Assembly: GCA_002774355.1 (NCBI GenBank)
Contig: PEYN01000018.1
Span: 91-64,090 of the forward strand
DNA: 64,000 nt
Origin: Fidelibacterota bacterium CG08_land_8_20_14_0_20_45_22
GTDB taxonomy: Bacteria > Fidelibacterota > UBA2242
Direction of reading: 5' to 3'
In this document: piece after piece, positions 228-23,568 of the stretch
Layout of the letters: each line of letters begins with the position of its first letter
How positions within the stretch are numbered: the stretch's first letter is position 1
The notes under the pieces: generated by a model
The model's database searches: none
What the model saw: the letters and a program-made list of their open reading frames with translations, nothing else
Told to the model about the DNA's origin: nothing
Program-made: the position numbers and the translations under genes

Positions 228-1182
228 ATGATTCGGAAGAAGATTAACTATACACCGGTCAGCCAGGTCGATATTACCGCGGCACTTCAACCAGAAATTA
301 CGCCTAAGAGAAATGTCTTTTACATATCTTTTCCACTAGATATTTACGTTAAGGTTAACGCTTATGGCCGGACTGTCAAATCAGTGATTGCTGGTAAAAG
401 GAAAATGTTTTTCAGCAAAGAGCCTTATCCCTACGAAGAAGATGCCTGGATTGTTAAAATCTCAGCCGAATCTTTGACGACTCTACCCGATGGTGAGCAG
501 CTTGTTGCGATCAATTTTAATTCGGGCGAGGCGGGGTTGCTAAATTTGCAGGTTGTTCCCAAAAGAAAACCGGCTGAGCTAACAATTACTGCTCCGGATG
601 TCAATCACGGCAATTCGGTGCTGTTTTTATTACCGGATGGTAAAAAAATGCTCGTAGATTGTGGCAAGGCTTTTATCCGCGATAGCGTGATTATTCCTTT
701 ATTAAAGAAAAATGGCGTTTCTCACCTGGATTACCTTATCCTTAGTCATTACCATGAAGACCATGATAGCGGGGATCGAGGACAGACAATCCGTGAAAAA
801 TTCAAAGTTGATAATTTCAGGGACTACCGCGATTTTAAAGCCGGAGATGAATTTGAAATCGGCGGCGTTCATTACCGGAAATCAAATCACAGCTATCGAA
901 ATGCCTGGAGAAATATTAACAGATTTTGCCTTGTTTCAGAATTATCCAAACCCGTTTAATCCTATGACAACCATTGTCTATTCAATTGCGGTCGAGAGTG
1001 TTGTAAAACTGCAGATTTATGACTTGCTTGGCAGGGAGGTAAAAACACTGGTAAACCAAAGGATGCCATCTGGTAAGCATATTGTTAATTTCAACGCCAA
1101 GGAATTGAAGTCAGGGATTTACTTTTATAAAATCAAAGCTGGCGATTTTGAACAGATGAAAAGGATGATACTGATTAAATAG
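228..1182 (+). pseudogene. Disrupted gene: ComEC-like metallo-beta-lactamase-fold N-terminal part (ORF 228..959) joined out of frame to a T9SS (Por) C-terminal sorting domain (ORF 712..1182)
   Basis: ORF 228..959 has LLPDGKKMLVDCG and LILSHYHEDH (HxHxDH) motifs of the beta-lactamase fold but lacks the downstream His/Asp motifs. The overlapping +1 frame ends with YPNPFNP...SGIYFYKIKAGDFEQMKRMILIK, a typical T9SS CTD. Confidence 0.45.
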
Positions 1183-3469: not shown

Positions 3470-4666
3470 ATGAAGAAAAAGATATTAATCGGTATTGGTA
3501 TTGTTTTGGTGGCATTATTGGGTTGGCGTTTAGTCAATTTGTTTTCCGGAGCCAACAAGCAGAAATTGGTCCGAATGGCGCGACTGCCGGTAGCCGTTGA
3601 GGTGGATAGCGTTCGATTTGCGCCCATCGTGGAAGTTCGGGAATTGACAGGAACAGTTTTTCCCGATTATCAATACGTTGTTTCACCCAAAGTTGCCGGT
3701 CGGTTAATTGAGATTCGAAAACGGATCGGCGACAAAGTCAAAGCAGGAGAAATCATTGCCCGAATCGACAATGCCGAATATCAGCAGGGCGTTTTGGAAG
3801 CGGAAGCTAATTTGCGCATTGCCGAATCTTCATTAAGCGAATCCCGCTCGAATTTTAATTTGGCAAAACAGGAAAAAGACCGCGTGGAGTCTCTTCAGAT
3901 AAAAGGCATTGCATCGTCCAGCGAATTAGATGCCGCGGTGTCGAATTATTCCGCGCAGAAATCGCGTTTCGATTTGGCACGGGCTCAGGTGGAACAACGT
4001 CAAGCGGCATTAAAATCTGCCAAGATTCGTTTGAGTTACACAACGCTGATCGCTTCTCAGCCCGGTCTTATTGGTGAACGTTATATTGATGAGGGCGCAC
4101 TCCTGTCGGCGAATTCTGCCGTTGTGTCGGTTGTTGGCATTGACCGCGTAATCGTTCGGACGACGGTGATCGAACGAGATTACGGAAAAATTAATTCCGG
4201 TCAATCGGCAAAAGTATCGGTAGATGCATTTCCAAATAAGGCGTTTTGGGGTAAAGTAACCCGCATTGCGCCTATGTTGCAAGAAGCCTCCCGCGTTGCC
4301 CAGATGGAAGTAGAAGTGGCTAACCAGACGCATGAACTAAAGCCTGGAATGTTTGCCCGCGTTGAGGTCATCACGGCGGAAAAAGCGAATACGCAAGTCG
4401 TGCCGAGTAAAGCATTAGTGACTTCCAACGGAGGAGTCGGTATTTTCGTGGTTCCAGAATCAACAACCGTTGCTCGATATTATTCCGTGACGACCGGAAT
4501 CGTGACGTCGGAATACACGGAGATTGTTGCGCCGATTCTTACTGGGCGCGTCATTACATTGGGTCAGCATTTGCTTGAAGATGGCAGTTTGGTGATTCTT
4601 CCCCAAATGAAACCAATTGAAATATCAGCGCCTGATTCTTTGCAAATTGGGGAAAAATCGAAATGA
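3470..4666 (+). CDS. RND efflux periplasmic adaptor subunit (membrane fusion protein, HlyD family)
   Basis: N-terminal TM anchor, coiled-coil rich middle, beta-barrel C-terminus; 4-bp overlap with the downstream RND pump gene. Confidence 0.85.
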   Translation: MKKKILIGIGIVLVALLGWRLVNLFSGANKQKLVRMARLPVAVEVDSVRFAPIVEVRELTGTVFPDYQYVVSPKVAGRLIEIRKRIGDKVKAGEIIARIDNAEYQQGVLEAEANLRIAESSLSESRSNFNLAKQEKDRVESLQIKGIASSSELDAAVSNYSAQKSRFDLARAQVEQRQAALKSAKIRLSYTTLIASQPGLIGERYIDEGALLSANSAVVSVVGIDRVIVRTTVIERDYGKINSGQSAKVSVDAFPNKAFWGKVTRIAPMLQEASRVAQMEVEVANQTHELKPGMFARVEVITAEKANTQVVPSKALVTSNGGVGIFVVPESTTVARYYSVTTGIVTSEYTEIVAPILTGRVITLGQHLLEDGSLVILPQMKPIEISAPDSLQIGEKSK

Positions 4667-7600
4667 ATATCGCCGCCGGACCAATTAAACGACCTATTTT
4701 AACCACAATCATTTATCTTATTGTCATTACGCTCGGATTGGTGTCATTTAGCCGGTTATCCATCGATCTGATGCCGGAAATCAGTTATCCGACGATTACG
4801 GTCATCACGAGTTATGGAAATGTAGGACCGCAGGAAATGGAAGAATCCATCTCTCGCCCGATCGAGGAGGCGCTGGCGGCGGTGCAGGGCGTCGATGAAA
4901 TTACCTCGACCTCCACCGAAGGACGAAGCGTCGTGCGGGTTTCATTCAACTGGGGGACAGATTTGGATGTCGCGGCGAACGATGTCCGCGACCGTATCGA
5001 CCGAGTAATGAGTCGGCTTCCCGAAGATATTGATCGTCCGATGATCCGAAAGTTTGATGTGTCGGCTTTTCCGATCATGAATATTGGCGTTTCTGGTAGC
5101 CTAAGTCCGCTAGAGTTGCGGCGAATCGTCGAAGATCAAGTCAAATATCGGCTGGAAAAAGCACCGGGCGTTGCATCGGTCGATATTCGCGGTGGACTCT
5201 ACCGGGAAATCCATGTTGACTTACATTCTGCAAAAATGAAGGCTCTGAACATTTCACCGGAATCTGTTCTGAACGCGCTGAAAAGTGAAAATCGGAACGT
5301 TCCCGCTGGTTTGTATGAGAAGGGAAATCTCGACGTGCTTGTCCGAACACAGGGTGAATATTCTAGTCTTGACGAAATCCGAAATACGGTGATTACCGCA
5401 CGAAACGGTGTGCCGATTCAAATTCGCGATGTCGCCGATGTGATCGATTCATGGGAAGAAGTTTTACAAATGGTACGTATTGATGGCAAACCGGGGCTTC
5501 GTATTGCTGTCAACAAGCAGTCTGGCGCAAATACGGTAAAAGTCGCCGATGCGGTGAAACTGGAAATGGTACGCATTAACCGCGATATTCCACAGATTCG
5601 ACTTATTCCGATAATGGACACCTCACAACGTACATTAAAAATTCGATCAGCAGTGTCGGCAATTCGGCGCTCATCGGCGGCATTTTAGCGGTTCTGATTC
5701 TTTTTCTGTTCTTGCGAAATGTCTCCAGTACGCTGATTATATCAACGGCGATTCCGATTTCAATTATTGCTACCTTCGGACTGATGTACTTCGGTGGATT
5801 CACGTTGAATACGATTACTTTCGGCGGGCTGGCGCTTGGGATTGGTATGCTCGTTGACTCTGCGATTGTCGTTCTCGAAAATATTTATCGCCACCGGGAG
5901 TCTGGCGCTTCATACCAACAGAGTGCGATGGATGGGGCGGTGGAAGTATGGTCGGCAATTCTTGCCAGTACGCTGACGACGATCGTTGTATTTCTTCCTG
6001 TCGTTTTTATTCGCGGCGTTTCCGGAATTATGTTTCAGCAAATGGCGTATGTTATCACTTTTTCTCTGCTGTGTTCGCTCATTGTTTCCGTGACGCTAAT
6101 TCCAATGCTATCGTCGCGCTTTCTCAAATTTCAGAGATCGGAACATTATCAGGACGAAAATGCTCTGCATCGGCTCTATTCATGGAGTGAAGACGCTTTC
6201 CGGCGAGTGGAGCAAAATTACTCAAGGATACTTCGGTGGGCTCTCGGTCATAAACGAACAGTTCTGATCGTGACGTTGGGACTTTTCATTTTGGCGGTGA
6301 TTCTGGTGCGGTTTATCGGCGTCGAGTTAATGCCGACTGCTGATGAAGGACAAGTTCAGGTCAGCCTGGAAATGGCCGTAGGAACCCGGTTGGAACTTAT
6401 CGATCAAGCGACTAAAGCTGTCGAAGATGTTATTTCAAAGCAAGTACTAGAAGCCATATCCGTTTTATCAAATATTGGCGGTGGCGGCTATGGTTCTTCC
6501 GGAGGACACATGTCTGATATCCGGATTCAACTGGTTTCTCGTGATAAGCGGAAACGGAGTAGCGAACAAATAGCAAACGACCTGCGAAAATCGCTTATTG
6601 GACTACCGGGTGTCACGATTCGGACGAGAGCCGGCCAGGGACTCTTTATATTGAGAATGGGAACTTCTTCGGGAAATGTGGTCGATGTCGAAATCCGTGG
6701 ATACGATCTGGAAACGGCACAGAAACTTGCACAAGGCGCCGATGAAGTTATTCGAAAAGTTCCAGGCGTCACCGATACCAAAATCAGCCGCGAGGAAGGA
6801 AGTCCGGAGCAGGTCATTCAGATCGATCGTGAGAAAGCGGCAGATTTAGGACTTGGTGTAACGCGAATTGGCGATGCGCTTCAAACGGCAGTCGGCGGGA
6901 CGCAGGCATCTTATTATCGCGAAGGCGGAAAGCAGTACAAAATTCTTGTGCGCCTCAGCGAAGAGGACCGAAAAGATTTGGATGAATTGCTGGATTTGTC
7001 TGTTTTGAACAGTCGGGGTTATCCCGTTGCCTTGCGAAATGTTGCTACGGTGATTCATCAGGAAGGGCCGGTTTCTATTGAACGCAAGAACCAAGAACGA
7101 ATCATCACCATCGGAACAAATTTCACCGGCAGAGATATGGGATCGGTCATTGGCGACATCCGTGAACAACTGCGCACTTTACCAATACCAAAAGACTTTC
7201 TGATCCAGTTTGGCGGCGATTACGAGGAACAGCAAAAAGCTTTCAAGGAATTGTTGGTTGGCATGGTGCTTGCCATTTTTCTGGTGTATATGGTTATGGC
7301 GGGGCAATTCGAGTCGTTTGTCGATCCGTTGGTCGTTCTCTTTTCGATTCCAATGGCAATCATTGGCGTTACACTGACGATGATTCTCACCAATACAATT
7401 TTTTCCATGCAGGCATTTATTGGTAGTATCATGCTCGCCGGAATCGTTGTCAACAATGCGATTCTTCTTGTCGATTATACGAATCAATTGCGCCGACAGG
7501 ACGGGATGGATTTGACCGATGCTGTTCAGACGGCCGGAAGTCGTCGCCTGCGACCGATTTTGATGACAACGTTGACAACGGTTTTAGGTTTATTACCGCT

Positions 7601-7757
7601 ATCGTTTGGTTTAGGTGAAGGCGGCGAAACACAGGCTCCGCTCGCTCGCGTCGTGATTGGCGGTTTACTTAGCTCGACGCTCATCACATTGGTACTGGTT
7701 CCGGTTATCTATTCTGTTTTCGAGCAACGGCTGAGAATCCGAAAGGAGCGCGGTTAG
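4663..7757 (+). pseudogene. RND efflux permease (AcrB/CzcA family) split by a single-nucleotide frameshift near 5629-5630 (fragments 4663..5688 and 5712..7757)
   Basis: ORF 4663..5688 encodes the AcrB N-terminal domain up to ...IPIMDTSQ. The frame of 5712..7757 read backwards gives YIKNSISSVGNSALIGGILAVLILFLFLRNVSSTLII, the conserved AcrB continuation. The two frames meet at 5626-5631 with two extra bases (cg). Confidence 0.8.
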
Positions 7758-9251
7758 ATGCGCTATAAAAATAAAAGAACGTTGCAACGAAAAATTCTCC
7801 TCTGTCTAATAATGGGAGGAATATCTGCGCTGGCGTCTGAACCGGAACTGGCAGATACACTGCGAATCGGTTTACAAGACGCGATTTTACTTGGGTTGAA
7901 AAACAATCCGACAGTGGCGGTTAAGCGACTGGAACCGAAAATCATGGAAACATACGTAAAAGAGCAAAAAGGTTTTTTTGATCCTGCGCTCGAAATTTCT
8001 GGAACACAAAGTCAAAATAAATCACAACGTCTGTTGGGAACGCGCCCGACACCCGTAGAACTTCAGGATAACCGCTCTAATTATTCTTTACAAATTTCGG
8101 AGATATTACCAACAGGAACAGCAGTAACAGCTTCAACCGGAATGACGGGTGCTTTGTCGAATTTGTACACCGACCAATTTTCCGGTACTATTGGCTTAAC
8201 CGTGACGCAACCGCTATTAAAAGGTTTTGGGTTTGGCGTCAATCTTGCCTCGCTTTGAAAAGCAAAAATTGATCTGAATATCTCGCAATCCGAATTAAAG
8301 GGCTTTGCGGAATCTATCGTCGCGGATATTGAAACGAGTTACTGGGAGTTGTATTTGACCGGCCAAGAGATCGCGATTCAGCGGAATTCGCTTGAACTGG
8401 CGGAACGTCAATTATCGGAATCGCTGGAACGCATCAAGGTTGGAAAACTCCCGGAAATTGAATTAGCCGCTGTCGAAGCGGAACTCGCCGCTCGGAAAAG
8501 CGCATTGATTGATGTTCAGAGCCGTCACGAGCAAGCGCGTTTGCGGATTATGTATCTACTGAATCCGGGGAAAGAGATGTCATGGTCACAACAATTTCAA
8601 CCAATTGATCAGCCTTTTTTGCCGAACGATACGTTGGCGTCAGTGACGATTCACGAACAGATTGGACTGAAATATCGACCGGATTTGGAGCAGGCTCGGC
8701 TTAATCTTCAGAAAGGTGATCTGGAAGTCAGGCGGACGCGAAACGGTTTGTTGCCTCAACTGGATTTTTTCGTCACGTTGGGAAAAACGACCTACGCCAA
8801 ATCATTCGATAAAGCCTATCCTGACGTGAATTCTCCATACTATCAGGCGAGCGCCGGACTGACGCTGGAAATTCCTGTGGCAAACCGGACGGCATCGGCG
8901 CAACACACCCGCGCGCGTCTCTCCCGCGAACAGCAATCGCTTGCCTTTCAAAATATGGAAAAATTAGCGCAGGTTGAGATTCGTTCCGCATACGCCGAGG
9001 TTATCCGCACCCGACAACAGATCGAAGCAACTCGAATGACCCGTGAACTGCAGGAAAAGAAACTTGCCGCAGAGTTGGAAAAATTCCGCGTGGGTAAATC
9101 GACCAACATTCTTGTCCTGCAGGCACAAAATGATTTCACTTCCAGCCAACTTAGCGAGGCGCGGACAATGGTTGCCTATCTGACCGCACTTGTCAATCTC
9201 TATGTTTCCGAAGGCGCCTTGCTGGAACGTCGAGGAATTGAGACTTTTTAG
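7758..9251 (+). pseudogene. TolC-like outer membrane efflux factor interrupted by an in-frame TGA at 8256-8258 (fragments 7758..8258 and 8349..9251 are in the same frame)
   Basis: Both ORFs are in frame 0. Translation across the stop gives ...GFGFGVNLASL*KAKIDLNISQSELKGFAESIVADIETSYWELYLTG..., a continuous outer-membrane-factor sequence; no other stop lies between the fragments. Confidence 0.7.
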
Positions 9252-18032: not shown

Positions 18033-18253
18033 CAGTAAATCTGCTCCCGCTTTAGTTTTCGGCGGGGTTTAAGAACTGTTTTCAACATCCTGAGCCATAA
18101 TATAAATCCAGGATGCAAATTTTTTGAGCATTTTTTTGGCATTTATGGCAATTATTTCATGGATTTGTTTTTTCTAAAGATGTCGGTAAATCCAACGCAA
18201 ATAAGATTCTTTTGAAAAAGGGTAAAAGGCGTGAAAAAGACATTTCAAATCAA

Positions 18254-18345
18254 GTGGTGATAATTTTTGCACATCGCCTACCGTCATCATCATCCATACT
18301 ATCGCGACTTTTCAACCGGTTTTCCGATCTGCCGTAACGTGGACA
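18254..18345 (+). repeat. Copy A of a dispersed ~90-bp repeat (second copy at 23578..23670)
   Basis: Approximately 85% identity with 23578..23670 over about 90 nt (shared cores GCCTACCGTCAT, TGCGACTTTTCAACCGGTTT, CTGCCGTA); same orientation relative to the downstream plus-strand gene. Confidence 0.6.
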
Positions 18346-18470
18346 AATTTAAAGCGGGTTGTTTGATTTTCGAACCAGCCCCTGAGAAGAAAAATGTTCA
18401 ATTCTGTGAGATTGATAACATCTTCTCGTCAAAATGTTGCTAAATTATAGTAGTCTTAAACGGAGGAGTT

Positions 18471-19265
18471 ATGAATAAATTGTTAAAAATGCCCTTTTTA
18501 GTTGCACTGATTTTTGCGACCACCCTTTTTGCTCAAGTCCCTGATCTCATTCTCCAGAAAGAAATTACGTTGGAATATAACGTTTATCTTGACAGCATGG
18601 AAACTGAGTTTCTAAAGTTATTGCCGGGAGTCGACGACGCTCAAACCATGAAAGCCCACATGGGACTGGCCATTATCCAGGCCGCTCGTACCTATGTTAA
18701 TGGCGACACTCTGGTCAATGATCTTGAATATTTAATGGAAAAAATGAGTGACAATATTATCTTGGGAGTTAATCAAACCATCACAGATATTTTTCCGGTG
18801 TTCGATGCCGGTAATCCGAATGCATTTGTACTGAACCTGACTGAATTCTTCGAATCTGGTACTTATCCGGCCTATCGTGATTCAATCGATGAATGGTTGA
18901 CTAACAATAGCATGCTGGCAGATGAAATGGGTGAGGCTATCGACTACTTTGGAGAAAAAACCAGCCCGCTGATGGAAGCCTTTGGAGATCACTGGAGCAC
19001 CGTCTATGATAGCACTGCTGACTTTGAATTTAAAGTCCAGATAGTGGGCTCCAAATATGAAGACACCTTGTTTGTTTTTTCCCGAACGTTTTTCGATCGG
19101 CAAAAAATGATCGCTACACTCGGCGAGACCATGGCCAAGACCCTTGACAGCGGATTTACCCAGATTCTTGATTCGCTGAATAATAACAGCACCGCCATTG
19201 ATCCGGGAGTCACAGTCGTTCAGGAAGGACTCGATTCATTAAGCGCTTTGATCGACAGCATTTAG
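18471..19265 (+). CDS. Hypothetical secreted protein (signal peptide); possibly the N-terminal part of the downstream ORF
   Basis: N-terminal signal peptide MNKLLKMPFLVALIFATTLFA. Same frame as ORF 19317..20771 and separated from it only by one TAG (19263-19265) and 17 open codons. Confidence 0.45.
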   Translation: MNKLLKMPFLVALIFATTLFAQVPDLILQKEITLEYNVYLDSMETEFLKLLPGVDDAQTMKAHMGLAIIQAARTYVNGDTLVNDLEYLMEKMSDNIILGVNQTITDIFPVFDAGNPNAFVLNLTEFFESGTYPAYRDSIDEWLTNNSMLADEMGEAIDYFGEKTSPLMEAFGDHWSTVYDSTADFEFKVQIVGSKYEDTLFVFSRTFFDRQKMIATLGETMAKTLDSGFTQILDSLNNNSTAIDPGVTVVQEGLDSLSALIDSI

Positions 19266-19316
19266 GTATTACTCTGGAATCAACCGTTTGCTCCATTTGA
19301 ATTCGAACTGGCGTGG

Positions 19317-20771
19317 ATGGATTCGCTCCAAAAAGGCATTGCCGAAATCGACGCCCTTTTGGGCGGTAAAACCTATCCAATCGGACCTGAGGCGGAAAAT
19401 AAAGTCATTCGGCCCAGAGGCATCATCGAGAGCTTGGCACACCATGACGGACCGATGGGTGTCTACAAGGATTACTATCGCGGCGGAGAGCAATCGACTT
19501 ACACCTTTTATAATACTTTCCCGAACGGCTTGACTGCCGACATGTATGCCATGATCGCTTCCGATATTATTCTGAATGCCAATGACACAAGAGAACAATT
19601 TGAGACCAAGCTACATGCCTATCAAACGGCGCTGGCGCTTAAAGAATCTTCGCCACTTACCCCCCTGACACCCGACGAACATTTTGGTCTGGCGCTGACC
19701 CTGCTATACGATTTATTGAACGATGAAGAATATTTCGGTAACATCAAGTCGGTCATGAAAATGATCTCCGACGGACGGATCGACAGCCTGCTCGCCACCT
19801 ATGAATGGAGCGATTTCGACGTGCAGGATCAGATTGACGTTATCCGCTATCATGTCGATCAGTATATCGGAAGTCCTGATATAACGAATTATGTGGTTTT
19901 GGTCAAAACTTATGATGATGGTCTGGATTCCTATGTTCTGGGTAAAGACAGTGAATTTTCAATTAATTATCTGACCGTCTCTCAGGTCTACCTCGCAACT
20001 GAGGCGATTGAACAGGCGTGTAAAGCCATGTCAATGATGGCCGATGCATTGACAAGTTTATACAACGAACTCGACCAGATGTTTATTCTGGATCTCGATC
20101 CTGAGTATTTGGATTTCTCTAATGTACAAGGCCCAATGGATATGATCAATATATTGGAACAATCCAATCCGGATTTTATGACTGTCACTCCTTATGGTAT
20201 TGGAAAATTTCATGAAATAGGTGACTGGTTGGAAGACACGTTCGAGAATTTCGGAATATTCTTTGATAATCTGAATGATCTGTTCGTCGCCATGGAACCC
20301 TATCAGGATGACTTTGATATGAATGCCGAAAATATGCAATTTATGTCCGCAATGTCGGCTGACATGGCGTGGAGTCTGTATGAAGATTTTGCAACTCCGG
20401 ATTCTACGGTAATGATCGATGGTGAGCGGGTCAATATATCGGCTTGGTTCGACAATCCGCCGACCAGTTTCCTAACAATGATGAAGAATTTCTTCATGGG
20501 CACCGACAGTACGTTGGGAGGCATGTTCCCAGACCGCTTTAAGGTCGGCATAGCCAAGAGAGACCAGATTTTACCGACTGAGTTCAAACTCTACCCGATA
20601 TATCCGAACCCGTTCAATCCGATGACGAATATCGAATTCGATCTGCCGCAGGAATCCGTCGTGAAATTATCCATTGTTGATTTGCAAGGCCGTACGGTCG
20701 AACAACTCGTAAACAACCGGATGGCGGCTGGCCGGATCACTTATAGAATTCTTTGCAAAACCTCTTCATAA
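19317..20771 (+). CDS. T9SS cargo protein (unknown function) whose C-terminal sorting domain is truncated by an IS insertion
   Basis: C-terminus YPIYPNPFNPMTNIEFDLPQESVVKLSIVDLQGRTVEQLVNNRMAAGRITY is the first two thirds of a T9SS CTD. The reading frame then runs into the IS left end and stops at 20769-20771. Confidence 0.6.
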   Translation: MDSLQKGIAEIDALLGGKTYPIGPEAENKVIRPRGIIESLAHHDGPMGVYKDYYRGGEQSTYTFYNTFPNGLTADMYAMIASDIILNANDTREQFETKLHAYQTALALKESSPLTPLTPDEHFGLALTLLYDLLNDEEYFGNIKSVMKMISDGRIDSLLATYEWSDFDVQDQIDVIRYHVDQYIGSPDITNYVVLVKTYDDGLDSYVLGKDSEFSINYLTVSQVYLATEAIEQACKAMSMMADALTSLYNELDQMFILDLDPEYLDFSNVQGPMDMINILEQSNPDFMTVTPYGIGKFHEIGDWLEDTFENFGIFFDNLNDLFVAMEPYQDDFDMNAENMQFMSAMSADMAWSLYEDFATPDSTVMIDGERVNISAWFDNPPTSFLTMMKNFFMGTDSTLGGMFPDRFKVGIAKRDQILPTEFKLYPIYPNPFNPMTNIEFDLPQESVVKLSIVDLQGRTVEQLVNNRMAAGRITYRILCKTSS

Positions 20772-22010
20772 GGACCTCAGATTTTGGTAAATTTGGGTTG
20801 TTTAAAAAAGGGAGTTGAACGTCAAATGTACCAGTTGAGTCTTGGAGATTATCAAGCCAGTCAAAATCGGATTGTTACGAAAGCGGAAATGAAATTAACA
20901 GAGATAGATAAGATCGTAAAATGGGATCGTCTTGTTGAATTAATTTCAGTAATTGATAAGACTGATAAACACATCGGAGGCCGGCCGCGAAAAGAGACTT
21001 TGATGATGGCGAAAATTCTGTTTGTGCAATATTTGTATAATCTGTCTGATCCAGAGTTAGAAGACCAGTTAAATGACCGACTCTCGTTTCAGCGATTTGC
21101 AGGAATAGGACTTGATATGAAGGTTCCGGACTACAGCACGATATGGAGATTTAAAGAGGCTTTGACAGAGCACAAACTGTTAAGCAGAATATTTGACTTA
21201 ATATTAGACGATTTGAAGTTGAGGGGGTTGATATTAAAGAAAGGGACCATAGTGGATGCGACGATCATACAGTCCTACAATCGCCCATTGAGTGAGAAAA
21301 AAAGAGAGGAACTACAAAAGAATCCAACCCAAACTTCAGGGATCGACATGGATGCCAGATCGACGAAAAAGAACGGGAAATATCATTATGGATATAAGGG
21401 ACATATTGGAACGGATGTGAAAAGCAAGTTGATCCGGCGGGCGTCTTTGACATCAGCCAATGTTCACGACAGTCAGGAAATGGGAGATTTAATCAGCGGT
21501 GACGAGCAATCTGTATTTGGAGATAAGGCATATTTCAGTGACAAGGGTAAACGTGACTTTCGAAGAAAAGGGATTTATTATGGAATCCTGAACAAAGGAA
21601 AACGAGGACATAAATTGTCGGAGAAACAGATCAGACAGAATAAACGACACTCGTCGATCCGGTCGCAGGTTGAGCATCCATTCGCATATATGAAACGCAT
21701 CCTGAATTACGAATGTGCGAGGGCTCGGAATCTGGCGAGGAATGAGTTGAGGTTCATGATGAATTGCATCGTCTATAATCTATTACGAGGCAGTTATTTG
21801 ATTAAAATGGCGGCTTAGTTGGACAGGTACGTCCCGAAGGTGAAATCCTTCAGAAAGCAGGTAAAAATGATAGAAATTGACAAGGGAAAATGCTAAAAAC
21901 TGTATCGACTGGACAGTATCTGGGATCATTCGGGCTAGAAATGACCACCGAAATTTTAAAATTGTGAAAATATTGACCATGAAGTAAAAGGGACGGTTTT
22001 TCAAAGTACT
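20746..22010 (+). mobile_element. IS5-family insertion sequence (~1265 bp) with imperfect terminal inverted repeats and 6-bp target duplication CTTATA
   Basis: CTTATA at 20740-20745 and 22011-22016. Left end GAATTCTTTGCAAAACC pairs with the reverse complement of the right end AGTACTTTGAAAAACC. Excising the element plus one duplicate restores the frame of the interrupted CTD. Confidence 0.75.
20826..21818 (+). CDS. IS5-family DDE transposase
   Basis: Begins MYQLSLGDYQ like IS5 Tnp (MSHQLTFADSE). N-terminal DUF772-type region (RPRKETLMMAKILFVQYLYNLSDPELEDQLNDRLSFQRFAGI), DDE domain with GTIVDATII and GYKGHIGTD. The ORF call 20784 is probably 42 nt too long. Confidence 0.85.
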   Translation: MYQLSLGDYQASQNRIVTKAEMKLTEIDKIVKWDRLVELISVIDKTDKHIGGRPRKETLMMAKILFVQYLYNLSDPELEDQLNDRLSFQRFAGIGLDMKVPDYSTIWRFKEALTEHKLLSRIFDLILDDLKLRGLILKKGTIVDATIIQSYNRPLSEKKREELQKNPTQTSGIDMDARSTKKNGKYHYGYKGHIGTDVKSKLIRRASLTSANVHDSQEMGDLISGDEQSVFGDKAYFSDKGKRDFRRKGIYYGILNKGKRGHKLSEKQIRQNKRHSSIRSQVEHPFAYMKRILNYECARARNLARNELRFMMNCIVYNLLRGSYLIKMAA

Positions 22011-22111
22011 CTTATACATGGAACGCTTCTCGTTATCCCTCCGGAATATATTTTGCCACGGTGGAAATTAATGGTCATCAGACTATCCGGAAGATGACAC
22101 TGCTTAAATAG
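21983..22111 (+). other. Displaced 3' remnant of the IS-interrupted T9SS C-terminal domain
   Basis: The frame after the IS encodes ...YTWNASRYPSGIYFATVEINGHQTIRKMTLLK*, the missing last third of the CTD (compare GKHIVNFNAKELKSGIYFYKIKAG...KRMILIK at 1080-1182). Confidence 0.7.
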
Positions 22112-22119
22112 GAACGGGA

Positions 22120-23568
22120 TTGCACTTAATCCGCATGTTTTATGTGGGGGAAAGCCGAAAACTTTTCCCCACTTTTTTTACGGTTCTATTAATCAGCGCG
22201 CCAGTTTTCGCCGGCCAATGGTACGAGTCGATTTACAGCCTGATGGGCTTTCCGCAAATTAATCAGAGTGTGTCTTCCGAGTCATACTATCATGAAAAAT
22301 ACATTTCCTTTTCGACTGGTTACGATGACGTATATCGCAAAAAAATCTATGGCAAAACAACCCTGACGCTGGCTGAGCAAAGTAATAGGGTGCAATTCGG
22401 ATTGCCCTGGCAAATAGGAAAGACCCGTCATCTTTTCACGGGTGAATTAGCCGAAGATTTCTTGTATTTCAATAATCTTAATGACGAGACCAGCCTTATC
22501 AGCCGGTGCCGGATCGCGAATACCAGAATAGACGCCCGCTGGATTATTTCACGAGGATCCAGTATCTTCAGCCTGGGTACCGAGTACAGTCAGAGCAACA
22601 TGCCCTTCACGATAAACATAAAATCCTTTCCCGAGTCCGAAGACTCCCAAACCAATAAGTATTTCTTTGACTTGCTCGAACCGACTTTCGGAAGGGAATT
22701 GGGCAGTACTCTGAGTCTGAAAAATACCGGTTTTTCCTTTTGGGCTTCGACCAGGTTGAATAGGCGCTGGCGTATCGGCGTTTCGATGCATTATGCGGGT
22801 TTCGATTCTGACTGGCGGATTAACTATATCAATTCAGGTCAAAATGGGAAACGGCGGATAGATATTCCTATGAACGGATTCGATAAGGTTTATCGCTTTT
22901 CTTTACTCCCAAATCAATCTTTGCTAAAAGATATATCAATTACATTTTTCAGGGATAATATCGATTATTTTATCGATAATAACCGTCCTAATATTACTGA
23001 TCTGAAAACTCTCGGCCAGGGAGATATTGGTCGCTCCGGTTCTGCTATCAATATTAATATCGAAAAACAGAAATGGAAAATATCCGGCGGTCTGTCGATT
23101 GCTAATTACGATCTCGATTCATTTTTGCGTACACCAGTCCTTGGATATTATTTATTTTTTCCGATTTCCCATTCGGCTGAATTTAATTTTTCACACGGAC
23201 GGTCCTTCAGCCAGCAGATTGGTTTCGATAACAACTTCGACTTCCGGAATATCAATATCCGAGCTGGTTCAGTTTATACCCACGCTCTTTACGATTTCTG
23301 GATTAAAGGAACAGCCGACCTGATGCTTGGCCTTGAATCTACCCCACTCGATTACCCGTTCAAATACAGTCTACATTTGCTGGATTTACACGCGGAAATG
23401 GAATGGCGTAAAGGTCCGTTTGGATTGACCTATAATTTCCAACAATTAATCCCAATCGGCCGGCGCCTGGACGACAGTCCGATCCGGTTTACCAAGAAAA
23501 CTCCGGGAGTGGAATATACAAATCATGGCGGACAACAGCATCAGATCAATCTCGGATATTATTTTTAA
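22120..23568 (+). CDS. Hypothetical outer-membrane beta-barrel protein
   Basis: Signal-peptide-like N-terminus (TVLLISAPVFAGQ), alternating hydrophobic patterns, C-terminal ...INLGYYF ending in an aromatic residue as in OMP barrels; no recognisable enzymatic motif. Confidence 0.4.
   Translation: MHLIRMFYVGESRKLFPTFFTVLLISAPVFAGQWYESIYSLMGFPQINQSVSSESYYHEKYISFSTGYDDVYRKKIYGKTTLTLAEQSNRVQFGLPWQIGKTRHLFTGELAEDFLYFNNLNDETSLISRCRIANTRIDARWIISRGSSIFSLGTEYSQSNMPFTINIKSFPESEDSQTNKYFFDLLEPTFGRELGSTLSLKNTGFSFWASTRLNRRWRIGVSMHYAGFDSDWRINYINSGQNGKRRIDIPMNGFDKVYRFSLLPNQSLLKDISITFFRDNIDYFIDNNRPNITDLKTLGQGDIGRSGSAININIEKQKWKISGGLSIANYDLDSFLRTPVLGYYLFFPISHSAEFNFSHGRSFSQQIGFDNNFDFRNINIRAGSVYTHALYDFWIKGTADLMLGLESTPLDYPFKYSLHLLDLHAEMEWRKGPFGLTYNFQQLIPIGRRLDDSPIRFTKKTPGVEYTNHGGQQHQINLGYYF

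Follow-up and report, generated by a model that had tools for sequence, protein, structure and literature searches.

The question raised by the locus described here is whether an insertion sequence (IS) found inside the gene of a type IX secretion system (T9SS) cargo protein represents a single recent inactivation of a functional gene or one lesion among several. The locus lies in a stretch of 64,000 nt of contig PEYN01000018.1 (GCA_002774355.1) from Fidelibacterota bacterium CG08_land_8_20_14_0_20_45_22, hereafter called the window, to which all unlabelled positions refer. Labels L0xx denote genome or metagenome contigs or loci and P0xxx homologous proteins. A first-pass annotation of the window had described a functional cargo gene starting at 19317 and inactivated once, recently, by an IS with a 6-bp CTTATA duplication. 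We show that the cargo gene is longer and that it carries a second lesion. Very probably, an IS5-family element transposed into the Tyr758 codon of a T9SS cargo gene of about 789 codons which is dead twice over, i.e. the locus reflects gene decay accompanied by a recently active IS.

The inserted element and its transposase gene are located as follows.

20744..22011, plus strand: IS5-family element, for which the best model gives 1,268 bp (1,266-1,268 bp depending on the counting of T20744/A20745), delimited by copies with at most one mismatch in different flanks
20826..21818, plus strand: transposase gene, 330 amino acids from ATG (alternative TTG start at 20784), matching NF033581, DUF772 and DDE_Tnp_1

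The GC content of the IS is 40%, as compared to 46% for the window. Its transposase matches NF033581 (transpos_IS5_4), the NCBIfam model for the IS5 family, with 275.9 bits (cut-off 140 bits) over model positions 2-284 of 285; among the NCBIfam models, IS1182, IS982, IS4 and all remaining ones score below their respective cut-offs. In the 344-amino-acid open reading frame (ORF) that begins at TTG, Pfam places DUF772 at residues 66-138 and DDE_Tnp_1 (PF01609) at residues 153-333, the latter as a complete domain (104.8 bits, model positions 5-200 of 200). By inspection, and in the numbering of the 330-residue protein, the catalytic motif comprises D144 (VDAT), D233 (GDKAY) and E283, and the R-x3-E-x6-K signature comprises R279, E283 and K290; these residues were assigned from motif knowledge and not from a structure. 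The transposase has 3,272 homologues at E<=1e-30, and all source-given names among the 120 homologues listed are 'IS5 family'. The element thus belongs to the IS5 family, in agreement with the earlier annotation. Its nearest database proteins are anonymous metagenomic sequences, therefore the IS is probably unnamed. The literature library that was searched contained nothing on this IS, nor on a Marinimicrobia T9SS cargo. Rfam and tRNA scans of the window gave no match, hence no RNA feature lies within the IS or at its target.

The element interrupts a C-terminal sorting domain (CTD) of the T9SS. The ORF 19317..20771 runs ...LVNNRMAAGRITY and then continues for eight IS-encoded residues (RILCKTSS) up to a stop codon. 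Removal of 1,271 bp joins ...GRITY in frame to the sequence displaced beyond the IS, and the restored protein ends ...GRITYTWNASRYPSGIYFATVEINGHQTIRKMTLLK before the stop.

22015..22111, plus strand: displaced 3' end of the cargo gene, from the third base of codon 758 through the codons of residues 759-789 (TWNASRYPSGIYFATVEINGHQTIRKMTLLK) to the stop, TAG

The restored protein scores 46.0 bits against Por_Secre_tail PF18962 (cut-off 27 bits; model positions 1-73 of 75) and 37.5 bits against TIGR04183 (cut-off 23 bits), and the CTD match stops four residues short of the stop codon. The truncated ORF reaches only 24.4 bits with PF18962 (model positions 1-37 only) and 19.9 bits with TIGR04183, both below cut-off. 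The CTD spans residues 710-789 (about 80 residues), of which the insertion within the codon for Tyr758 cuts off the last 31. Without gaps, the restored CTD aligns to the CTD that closes ORF 712..1182, as had been claimed for positions 1080-1182 (the frame begins at 1081, a trivial difference), and to those of the orthologues P0003-P0008, e.g. AAGRINYTWNAARYPSGIYF in P0004. At the DNA level, the empty-site sequence reads GGCCGGATCACTTATACATGGAACGC as compared to GGCCGGATTGCCTTTACGTGGAATGC in the uninterrupted gene of the closest relative, L043. The IS is inserted in a type-A T9SS CTD and the gene is exactly restorable; this part of the original description is borne out.

We next consider the termini of the element and the target site, for which the following features were compared.

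20746..20762, plus strand: left inverted repeat, GAATTCTTTGCAAAACC, matching the right repeat at 14 of 17 positions
21995..22011, minus strand: right inverted repeat, reverse complement GAGTACTTTGAAAAACC, matching the left repeat at 14 of 17 positions
20741..20743, unstranded: left copy of the putative target duplication, which the best model reads as TTA (a 4-bp model as TTAT, 20741-20744), from multi-flank comparison
22012..22014, unstranded: right copy of the putative target duplication, TTA (TTAT, 22012-22015, in a 4-bp model), from multi-flank comparison

The imperfect inverted repeats reported before were found as quoted; with one further base on the right they are 17 bp long. They start with GA, and the IS ends are identical in all independent copies. 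CTTATA is indeed repeated (20740-20745 and 22011-22016, the copies being separated by 1,265 bp), yet it does not represent a 6-bp target duplication. The duplication length was derived from 9 distinct left and 6-7 distinct right flanks of the IS and its 92-96% identical variants; flank pairs were inferred in this comparison, none being observed on one molecule. At the right junctions, C follows GTACT in all of the seven distinct cases, and the equivalent left-flank base is C in three of eight. As this C is constant whatever the flank, C22011 is part of the IS, which excludes a duplication of 6 bp. Likewise, T and A precede GAATTC at nine of nine distinct left junctions, whereas right-flank position +4 is T in three of six and +5 is A in four of six. 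Being constant on the left and variable on the right, T20744-A20745 is therefore most likely borne by the IS.

Cutting by the DDE transposase followed by staggered joining would duplicate a short AT-rich target, most likely the 3-bp TTA, and the IS would then read TAGAATTC...GTACTC (20744..22011). On the flank comparison, a 3-bp duplication (TTA) appears most likely, a 4-bp duplication (TTAT) less likely and a 5-bp duplication (TTATA) is disfavoured. Concerning the latter, 17 of 17 left flanks end in TA across two related ISs, and TA is absent from positions 4-5 in 7 of 13 right flanks; the model fails for L007/L009 and for right flanks without TA. A symmetric model with an IS ending ...CTCT is disfavoured by the 92% variant L026, which has A after GTACTC, and by the T at left position -2 in 9/9 junctions, the matching right position being T in 3/6. 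Flanks that can be paired under a 3-bp rule are L002 or L039 with L027 (TTT) and L007 with L009 (TAA), and a 4-bp model (TTAT, TTTT, TAAT) is compatible with the same pairs. Pairing of flanks by ORF continuity across the joined sequences was uninformative, since the flanks were too short or the insertions lay between genes.

Some observations speak against a 3-bp duplication. Five putative pairs fit a length of 5 bp (the window; L002 or L039 with L027; L051; L055; the IS encoding P0125), and the only complete variant copy, L026, lacks any duplication, although it may be a chimeric assembly. Moreover, the 3-bp length draws on the asymmetry between left and right junctions (nine and six, respectively) and on inferred flank pairs. 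The restored gene sequence is identical under every duplication-length model. Targets of the IS and its relatives often continue with bases that match the IS termini, C-NNN-TA (window, L051, L055, L044). With flank bases matching the C of the right end and the TA of the left end, a 3-bp duplication looks like one of 5-7 bp at several sites. This mimicry may reflect a preference for targets that resemble the abutted IS ends.

Further copies of the element, a search for which had been proposed as a check, were found in several different flanks. Exact look-up of the transposase identified 10 contigs, and scanning genome and metagenome collections for the end patterns revealed others; most of the remaining matches to these degenerate patterns showed no BLAST similarity to the element and were discarded as probably fortuitous. 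IS DNA of 99.9-100% identity is present at four other left flanks (L002, L007, L008, L039) and four other right flanks (L003, L005/L027, L009, L032), giving five distinct left and five distinct right flanks with the window included. Copies at other sites differ from the window IS by at most one mismatch. Such near-identical copies in several flanks show that the element is multi-copy and was recently active. Variants of 92-96% identity occupy further sites in another population, including a metagenome-assembled genome of Ca. Neomarinimicrobiota (L016); a full-length copy of 92% identity is L026:1114-2381. A k-mer scan of the window revealed no further IS copies. The left flank of the 92% variant (L026:1-1114 / L040) has a number of direct repeats within it, each of about 100 bp, which break the BLAST alignment of L026 and L040 into multiple pieces.

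How large is the interrupted gene? Homologues of the restored protein, which appear in NCBI as 'T9SS type A sorting domain-containing protein' of Fidelibacterota, Neomarinimicrobiota or Candidatus Marinimicrobia, have about 785-790 residues and are colinear with ORF 18471..19265 followed by ORF 19317.., which share the same frame. The ancestral gene therefore does not begin at 19317, as first annotated, but corresponds to 18471..22111 minus the IS, with 789 codons.

18471..19262, plus strand: 5' part of the cargo gene, codons 1-264, beginning with a Sec-type signal peptide (MNKLLKMPFLVALIFATTLFA, cleavage before Q), colinear with orthologues of 785-790 amino acids
19263..19265, plus strand: premature in-frame TAG at codon 265, Gln in orthologues (CAG in L043 and L058)
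19266..20743, plus strand: central stretch of the cargo gene, from codon 266 through the second base of codon 758, in the frame of 18471, including the first ~49 CTD residues

Around the TAG the window reads IDSI, stop, VLLWNQPFAPFEF, as compared to IDSIQVLLWNQPFAPFEF in P0003. The ORF from 19317 begins at an internal Met (MDSLQKGIAEID), which by inspection is not a signal peptide; a signal peptide, assigned in the same way, is present only in the full ancestral gene from 18471. The cargo protein is conserved in Marinimicrobia (Fidelibacterota) with the CTD as its only recognisable domain, and a PDB sequence search with the 789-residue protein gave no match. The IS is not the only lesion, as had been assumed: a TAG at 19263-19265 replaces a conserved Gln. 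As read from the alignment to its orthologues, the cargo gene is a predicted pseudogene with two independent lesions, the IS and a CAG-to-TAG change at codon 265.

From the native start, translation would end at codon 265 and yield a signal-peptide fragment without CTD, and the ORF that starts internally, at the Met of 19317, encodes neither a signal peptide nor the last 31 residues of the CTD. According to published work on Porphyromonas CTDs, loss of part of the CTD should prevent export by the T9SS. Each of the two lesions should by itself block T9SS-dependent export of the protein. The original statement that the IS should abolish secretion tells only half the story, as the TAG alone precludes a CTD-bearing product from the native start. 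The original account of one recent insertion with a 6-bp duplication in a functional gene from 19317 is correct in that CTTATA is repeated and the CTD can be restored exactly. It is barely tenable in view of C22011 and T20744-A20745, which are constant whatever the flank and limit the duplication to at most 5 bp, most likely 3, of the start at 18471 and the premature TAG at codon 265, both placed by the orthologues, the TAG being present on at least 8 contigs, and of the start MDSLQKGIAEID, which is not a signal peptide.

Both lesions recur in independent data. The left IS junction is present on 8 independent metagenome contigs from 8 samples and the right junction on 2, a recurrence far beyond chance. 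The 264-residue product ending at the TAG is encoded on 10 independent contigs, 8 of them listed. On the contigs L018-L021, from four samples, both lesions occur together: the 264-residue product is followed by the IS-truncated ORF of 484 residues. Among the homologues in the protein collection, no empty-site, intact or single-lesion allele was found; the best homologue is the IS-truncated P0001 and the next one is only 85% identical. The flanks of the other IS copies were searched against the window for empty sites, and none were found. As both lesions co-occur in several samples and no empty allele was seen, both look common, perhaps fixed, in the sampled populations. The insertion thus appears to be common in these populations rather than a heterogeneous new event. 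Of the former description as a recent, genuine transposition, 'genuine' stands and 'recent' holds for IS activity; as to the insertion, several samples contain it along with the TAG.

Recurrence on contigs also bears on the soundness of the assembly. A collapsed repeat of the IS joined to unrelated flanks, with no true insertion, would mimic an interrupted gene, and chimeric paths through this IS repeat do occur in metagenome assemblies: in L003 (1845-2228) and L005 (1684-1895) the left flank of the cargo gene is joined via the IS to foreign right flanks. The window flanks, however, rebuild one codon-perfect CTD that aligns without gaps to the orthologues, contig L006 runs from the left flank through the IS into the right flank, eight samples share the left junction and synteny on both sides agrees with L043. 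The codon-perfect CTD and the spanning contig L006 exclude a chimera for the window, and we assign an assembly artefact a close to negligible probability. The right flank of L005 is the right flank of L027; the joins in L003 and L005 are either chimeric assemblies or real IS-mediated rearrangements.

Could the gene have remained functional despite the TAG until the IS arrived? The TAG might be tolerated by read-through, a suppressor tRNA or re-initiation, the IS then being the real knock-out. Related loci carry comparable codons. L043 is free of the IS and carries a separate in-frame TAG at codon 175 (5992-5994), where the window has Trp (TGG). L058, a third homologous locus, which was found in some of the same samples and has a different gene neighbourhood, has TAGs at codon 175 (2443-2445) and at codon 359 (2995-2997; Tyr in other orthologues). 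Apart from these codons both frames, 790 codons long with the stop counted, are intact. The in-frame stops, four in all (window, L043 and two in L058), are TAG followed by G, and the cargo gene has a low dN/dS (ratio of nonsynonymous to synonymous substitution rates) of 0.08 between window and L043 (dS about 1.0), like carA (0.09) and glmS (0.08). All this would be compatible with tolerance. Yet the TAGs stand for three different amino acids (Gln, Trp, Tyr) without consistent recoding, and TAG is a common genuine stop in the window, where it closes the cargo gene itself and 9 of 29 long ORFs. Each TAG is a single nucleotide change away from the ancestral codon, low dN/dS at dS of about 1 mainly reflects the history before the lesions, and neighbouring genes carry other types of lesion (frameshift, TGA), fitting general decay. 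We therefore consider a tolerated TAG quite improbable and translation past codon 265 presumably does not take place. Two points tell against a gene dead twice over: the frame 3' of the TAG is otherwise intact, so that read-through is compatible with the sequence, and either lesion may have come first. The dN/dS of the cargo gene, similar to that of carA and glmS, indicates strong constraint until recently, and the lesions are consequently recent relative to the divergence of window and L043.

The shared TAG at codon 175 was further analysed. Recombination was rejected as its source, as DNA identity between L043 and L058 is not raised locally. Since there is no recombination tract and sister sequences of both lineages have Trp at codon 175, the TAGs in L043 and L058 look like parallel mutations. 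Apparently short orthologues were considered as additional pseudogenes and dismissed: L061 and L063 are contig-edge artefacts, and L062 is 5'-truncated beside a contig end. An ISL3-family transposase (L058:553-1791) lies directly upstream of the doubly TAG-interrupted homologue, showing a second IS family active in these populations.

Loss of the same gene in several lineages, i.e. the IS and Q265-to-TAG in the window, W175-to-TAG in L043, and W175-to-TAG together with Y359-to-TAG in L058, might also be adaptive or convergent. Selection could act against a surface protein, e.g. a phage receptor, or the TAGs could be subject to tolerated or regulated read-through. If this were true, the IS insertion would be one case of an adaptive, convergent process and not of neutral decay. 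We regard such a reading as unlikely. The preferred explanation remains ordinary gene decay by way of a routine IS5-family insertion, and no new mechanism is involved. The only mildly unusual point is that related lineages have recently, repeatedly and partly in parallel inactivated one and the same strongly conserved T9SS cargo gene.

Gene decay is also evident from the neighbourhood of the cargo gene. An AcrB-like RND transporter gene (window 4663-7757) is split by a frameshift into 4663..5688 (341 residues, ACR_tran 6-334) and 5712..7757 (681 residues, ACR_tran 353-1020), and the split gene calls recur on contigs of five samples. The adjacent gene for a TolC-like outer-membrane efflux protein (OEP; window 7758-9251) has an in-frame TGA at 8256-8258 that divides it into 166 and 300 residues in the same frame, with split gene calls recurring on contigs of four samples. 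ORFs 228..959 and 712..1182, which overlap and differ in frame, encode an N-terminal metallo-beta-lactamase fragment (HYHEDHD) and an intact T9SS CTD, respectively; window 228-1182 looks like another degraded or rearranged cargo gene. The remainder of the window, beyond its first 22 kb, appears undamaged. In view of the neighbouring lesions and the recent IS activity, the insertion is best viewed as part of an accumulating inactivation. It would be one of several inactivating mutations, local and perhaps genome-wide, beside a recently active IS.

This has consequences for annotation. Positions 18471..22111 are to be annotated as one pseudogene with two lesions and a mobile element, and not as two or three hypothetical proteins. 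Defined IS ends and target allow the masking of other copies of this IS, which breaks metagenome contigs and makes chimeric joins (L003, L005). Several lesions common in the sampled populations lie inside 22 kb beside a recently active IS, and related groundwater Marinimicrobia loci show independent breaks in this cargo gene. The pattern may be of interest with regard to the decay of genomes in uncultivated bacteria of the subsurface and to bottlenecks in their populations.

Judged by transposase sequence, the closest named relatives of the element are IS5-group elements. It aligns end to end, with about 33% identity, to transposases from enterobacterial plasmids annotated as 'IS5-like element IS5 family' or 'ISKpn26 family'. 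Like IS5/ISKpn26 (IS5 group, Enterobacteriaceae), it encodes a single transposase of about 330 residues with DUF772 and DDE_Tnp_1, and has a length of 1.2-1.3 kb, inverted repeats of about 16-17 bp beginning with G-A/G and a short AT-containing target. IS5 duplicates 4 bp at YTAR (CTAA/CTAG), whereas the targets of the window element are TTA(T), TTT(T) and TAA(T) with a best-fit length of 3 bp, and in contrast to IS5 it seems to have an extra TA outside the left inverted repeat. It also differs from IS5/ISKpn26 in its host, an uncultivated member of the Marinimicrobia, and in sharing only 33% amino acid identity. More closely related are metagenomic elements encoding P0121/P0122 (91% amino acid identity, L026) and P0124 (71%, L048-L057), which have the same architecture, a near-identical repeat (G/A)ATTCTTTGCAAAACC, TA directly outside the left repeat and AT-rich TAN targets with flanks resembling the IS ends. 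The repeats of the P0124 element are GGATTCTTTGCAAAACC / GAATTCTTTGCAAAACC, and it is arranged as ...TAN, TAGGATTC...GAATTC, TAN... from flank to flank. These metagenomic elements occur in other hosts and at other sites, diverge by 8-29% at the amino acid level, and no insertion in a T9SS CTD was seen among them. Porphyromonas gingivalis, a T9SS-bearing host of the FCB group, has a multi-copy, gene-disrupting IS5-family element, IS1126, of about 1.3 kb and with a 5-bp duplication.

The synteny shared with L043 comprises carB, carA, the cargo gene, a conserved protein of about 480 residues (no Pfam match), and genes for RluA-like, PRAI/Smr and GlmS proteins. Two further features lie downstream of the cargo gene.

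22144..22180, plus strand: terminator-like hairpin with T-run, 33 nt past the cargo stop, with a similar hairpin at the same place in L043
22120-23568 (window): downstream partner protein of about 450-480 amino acids, with counterparts at L043:7863-9311, L058:4397-5752, L062:1912-3306 and L063:1892-3343

With a hairpin after the cargo stop, the polar effect of the IS on the next gene is probably small. The partner protein, of about 450-480 residues and without Pfam match, is always encoded immediately after the cargo gene, also where the homologues are distant, so that the two form a conserved gene pair. The end of the window protein, ...NLGYYF, suggests an outer-membrane barrel. The predicted start of the window ORF 22120-23568 overlaps the terminator-like hairpin, whose stem-loop lies at 22144-22172. 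Upstream, the interval between carA and the cargo gene contains three extra genes in L043 (2262-5290) without counterpart in window 18033-18470; they encode a 204-residue protein, a 512-residue CTD protein and an FGE-sulfatase-like protein and constitute a variable region adjoining the cargo gene.

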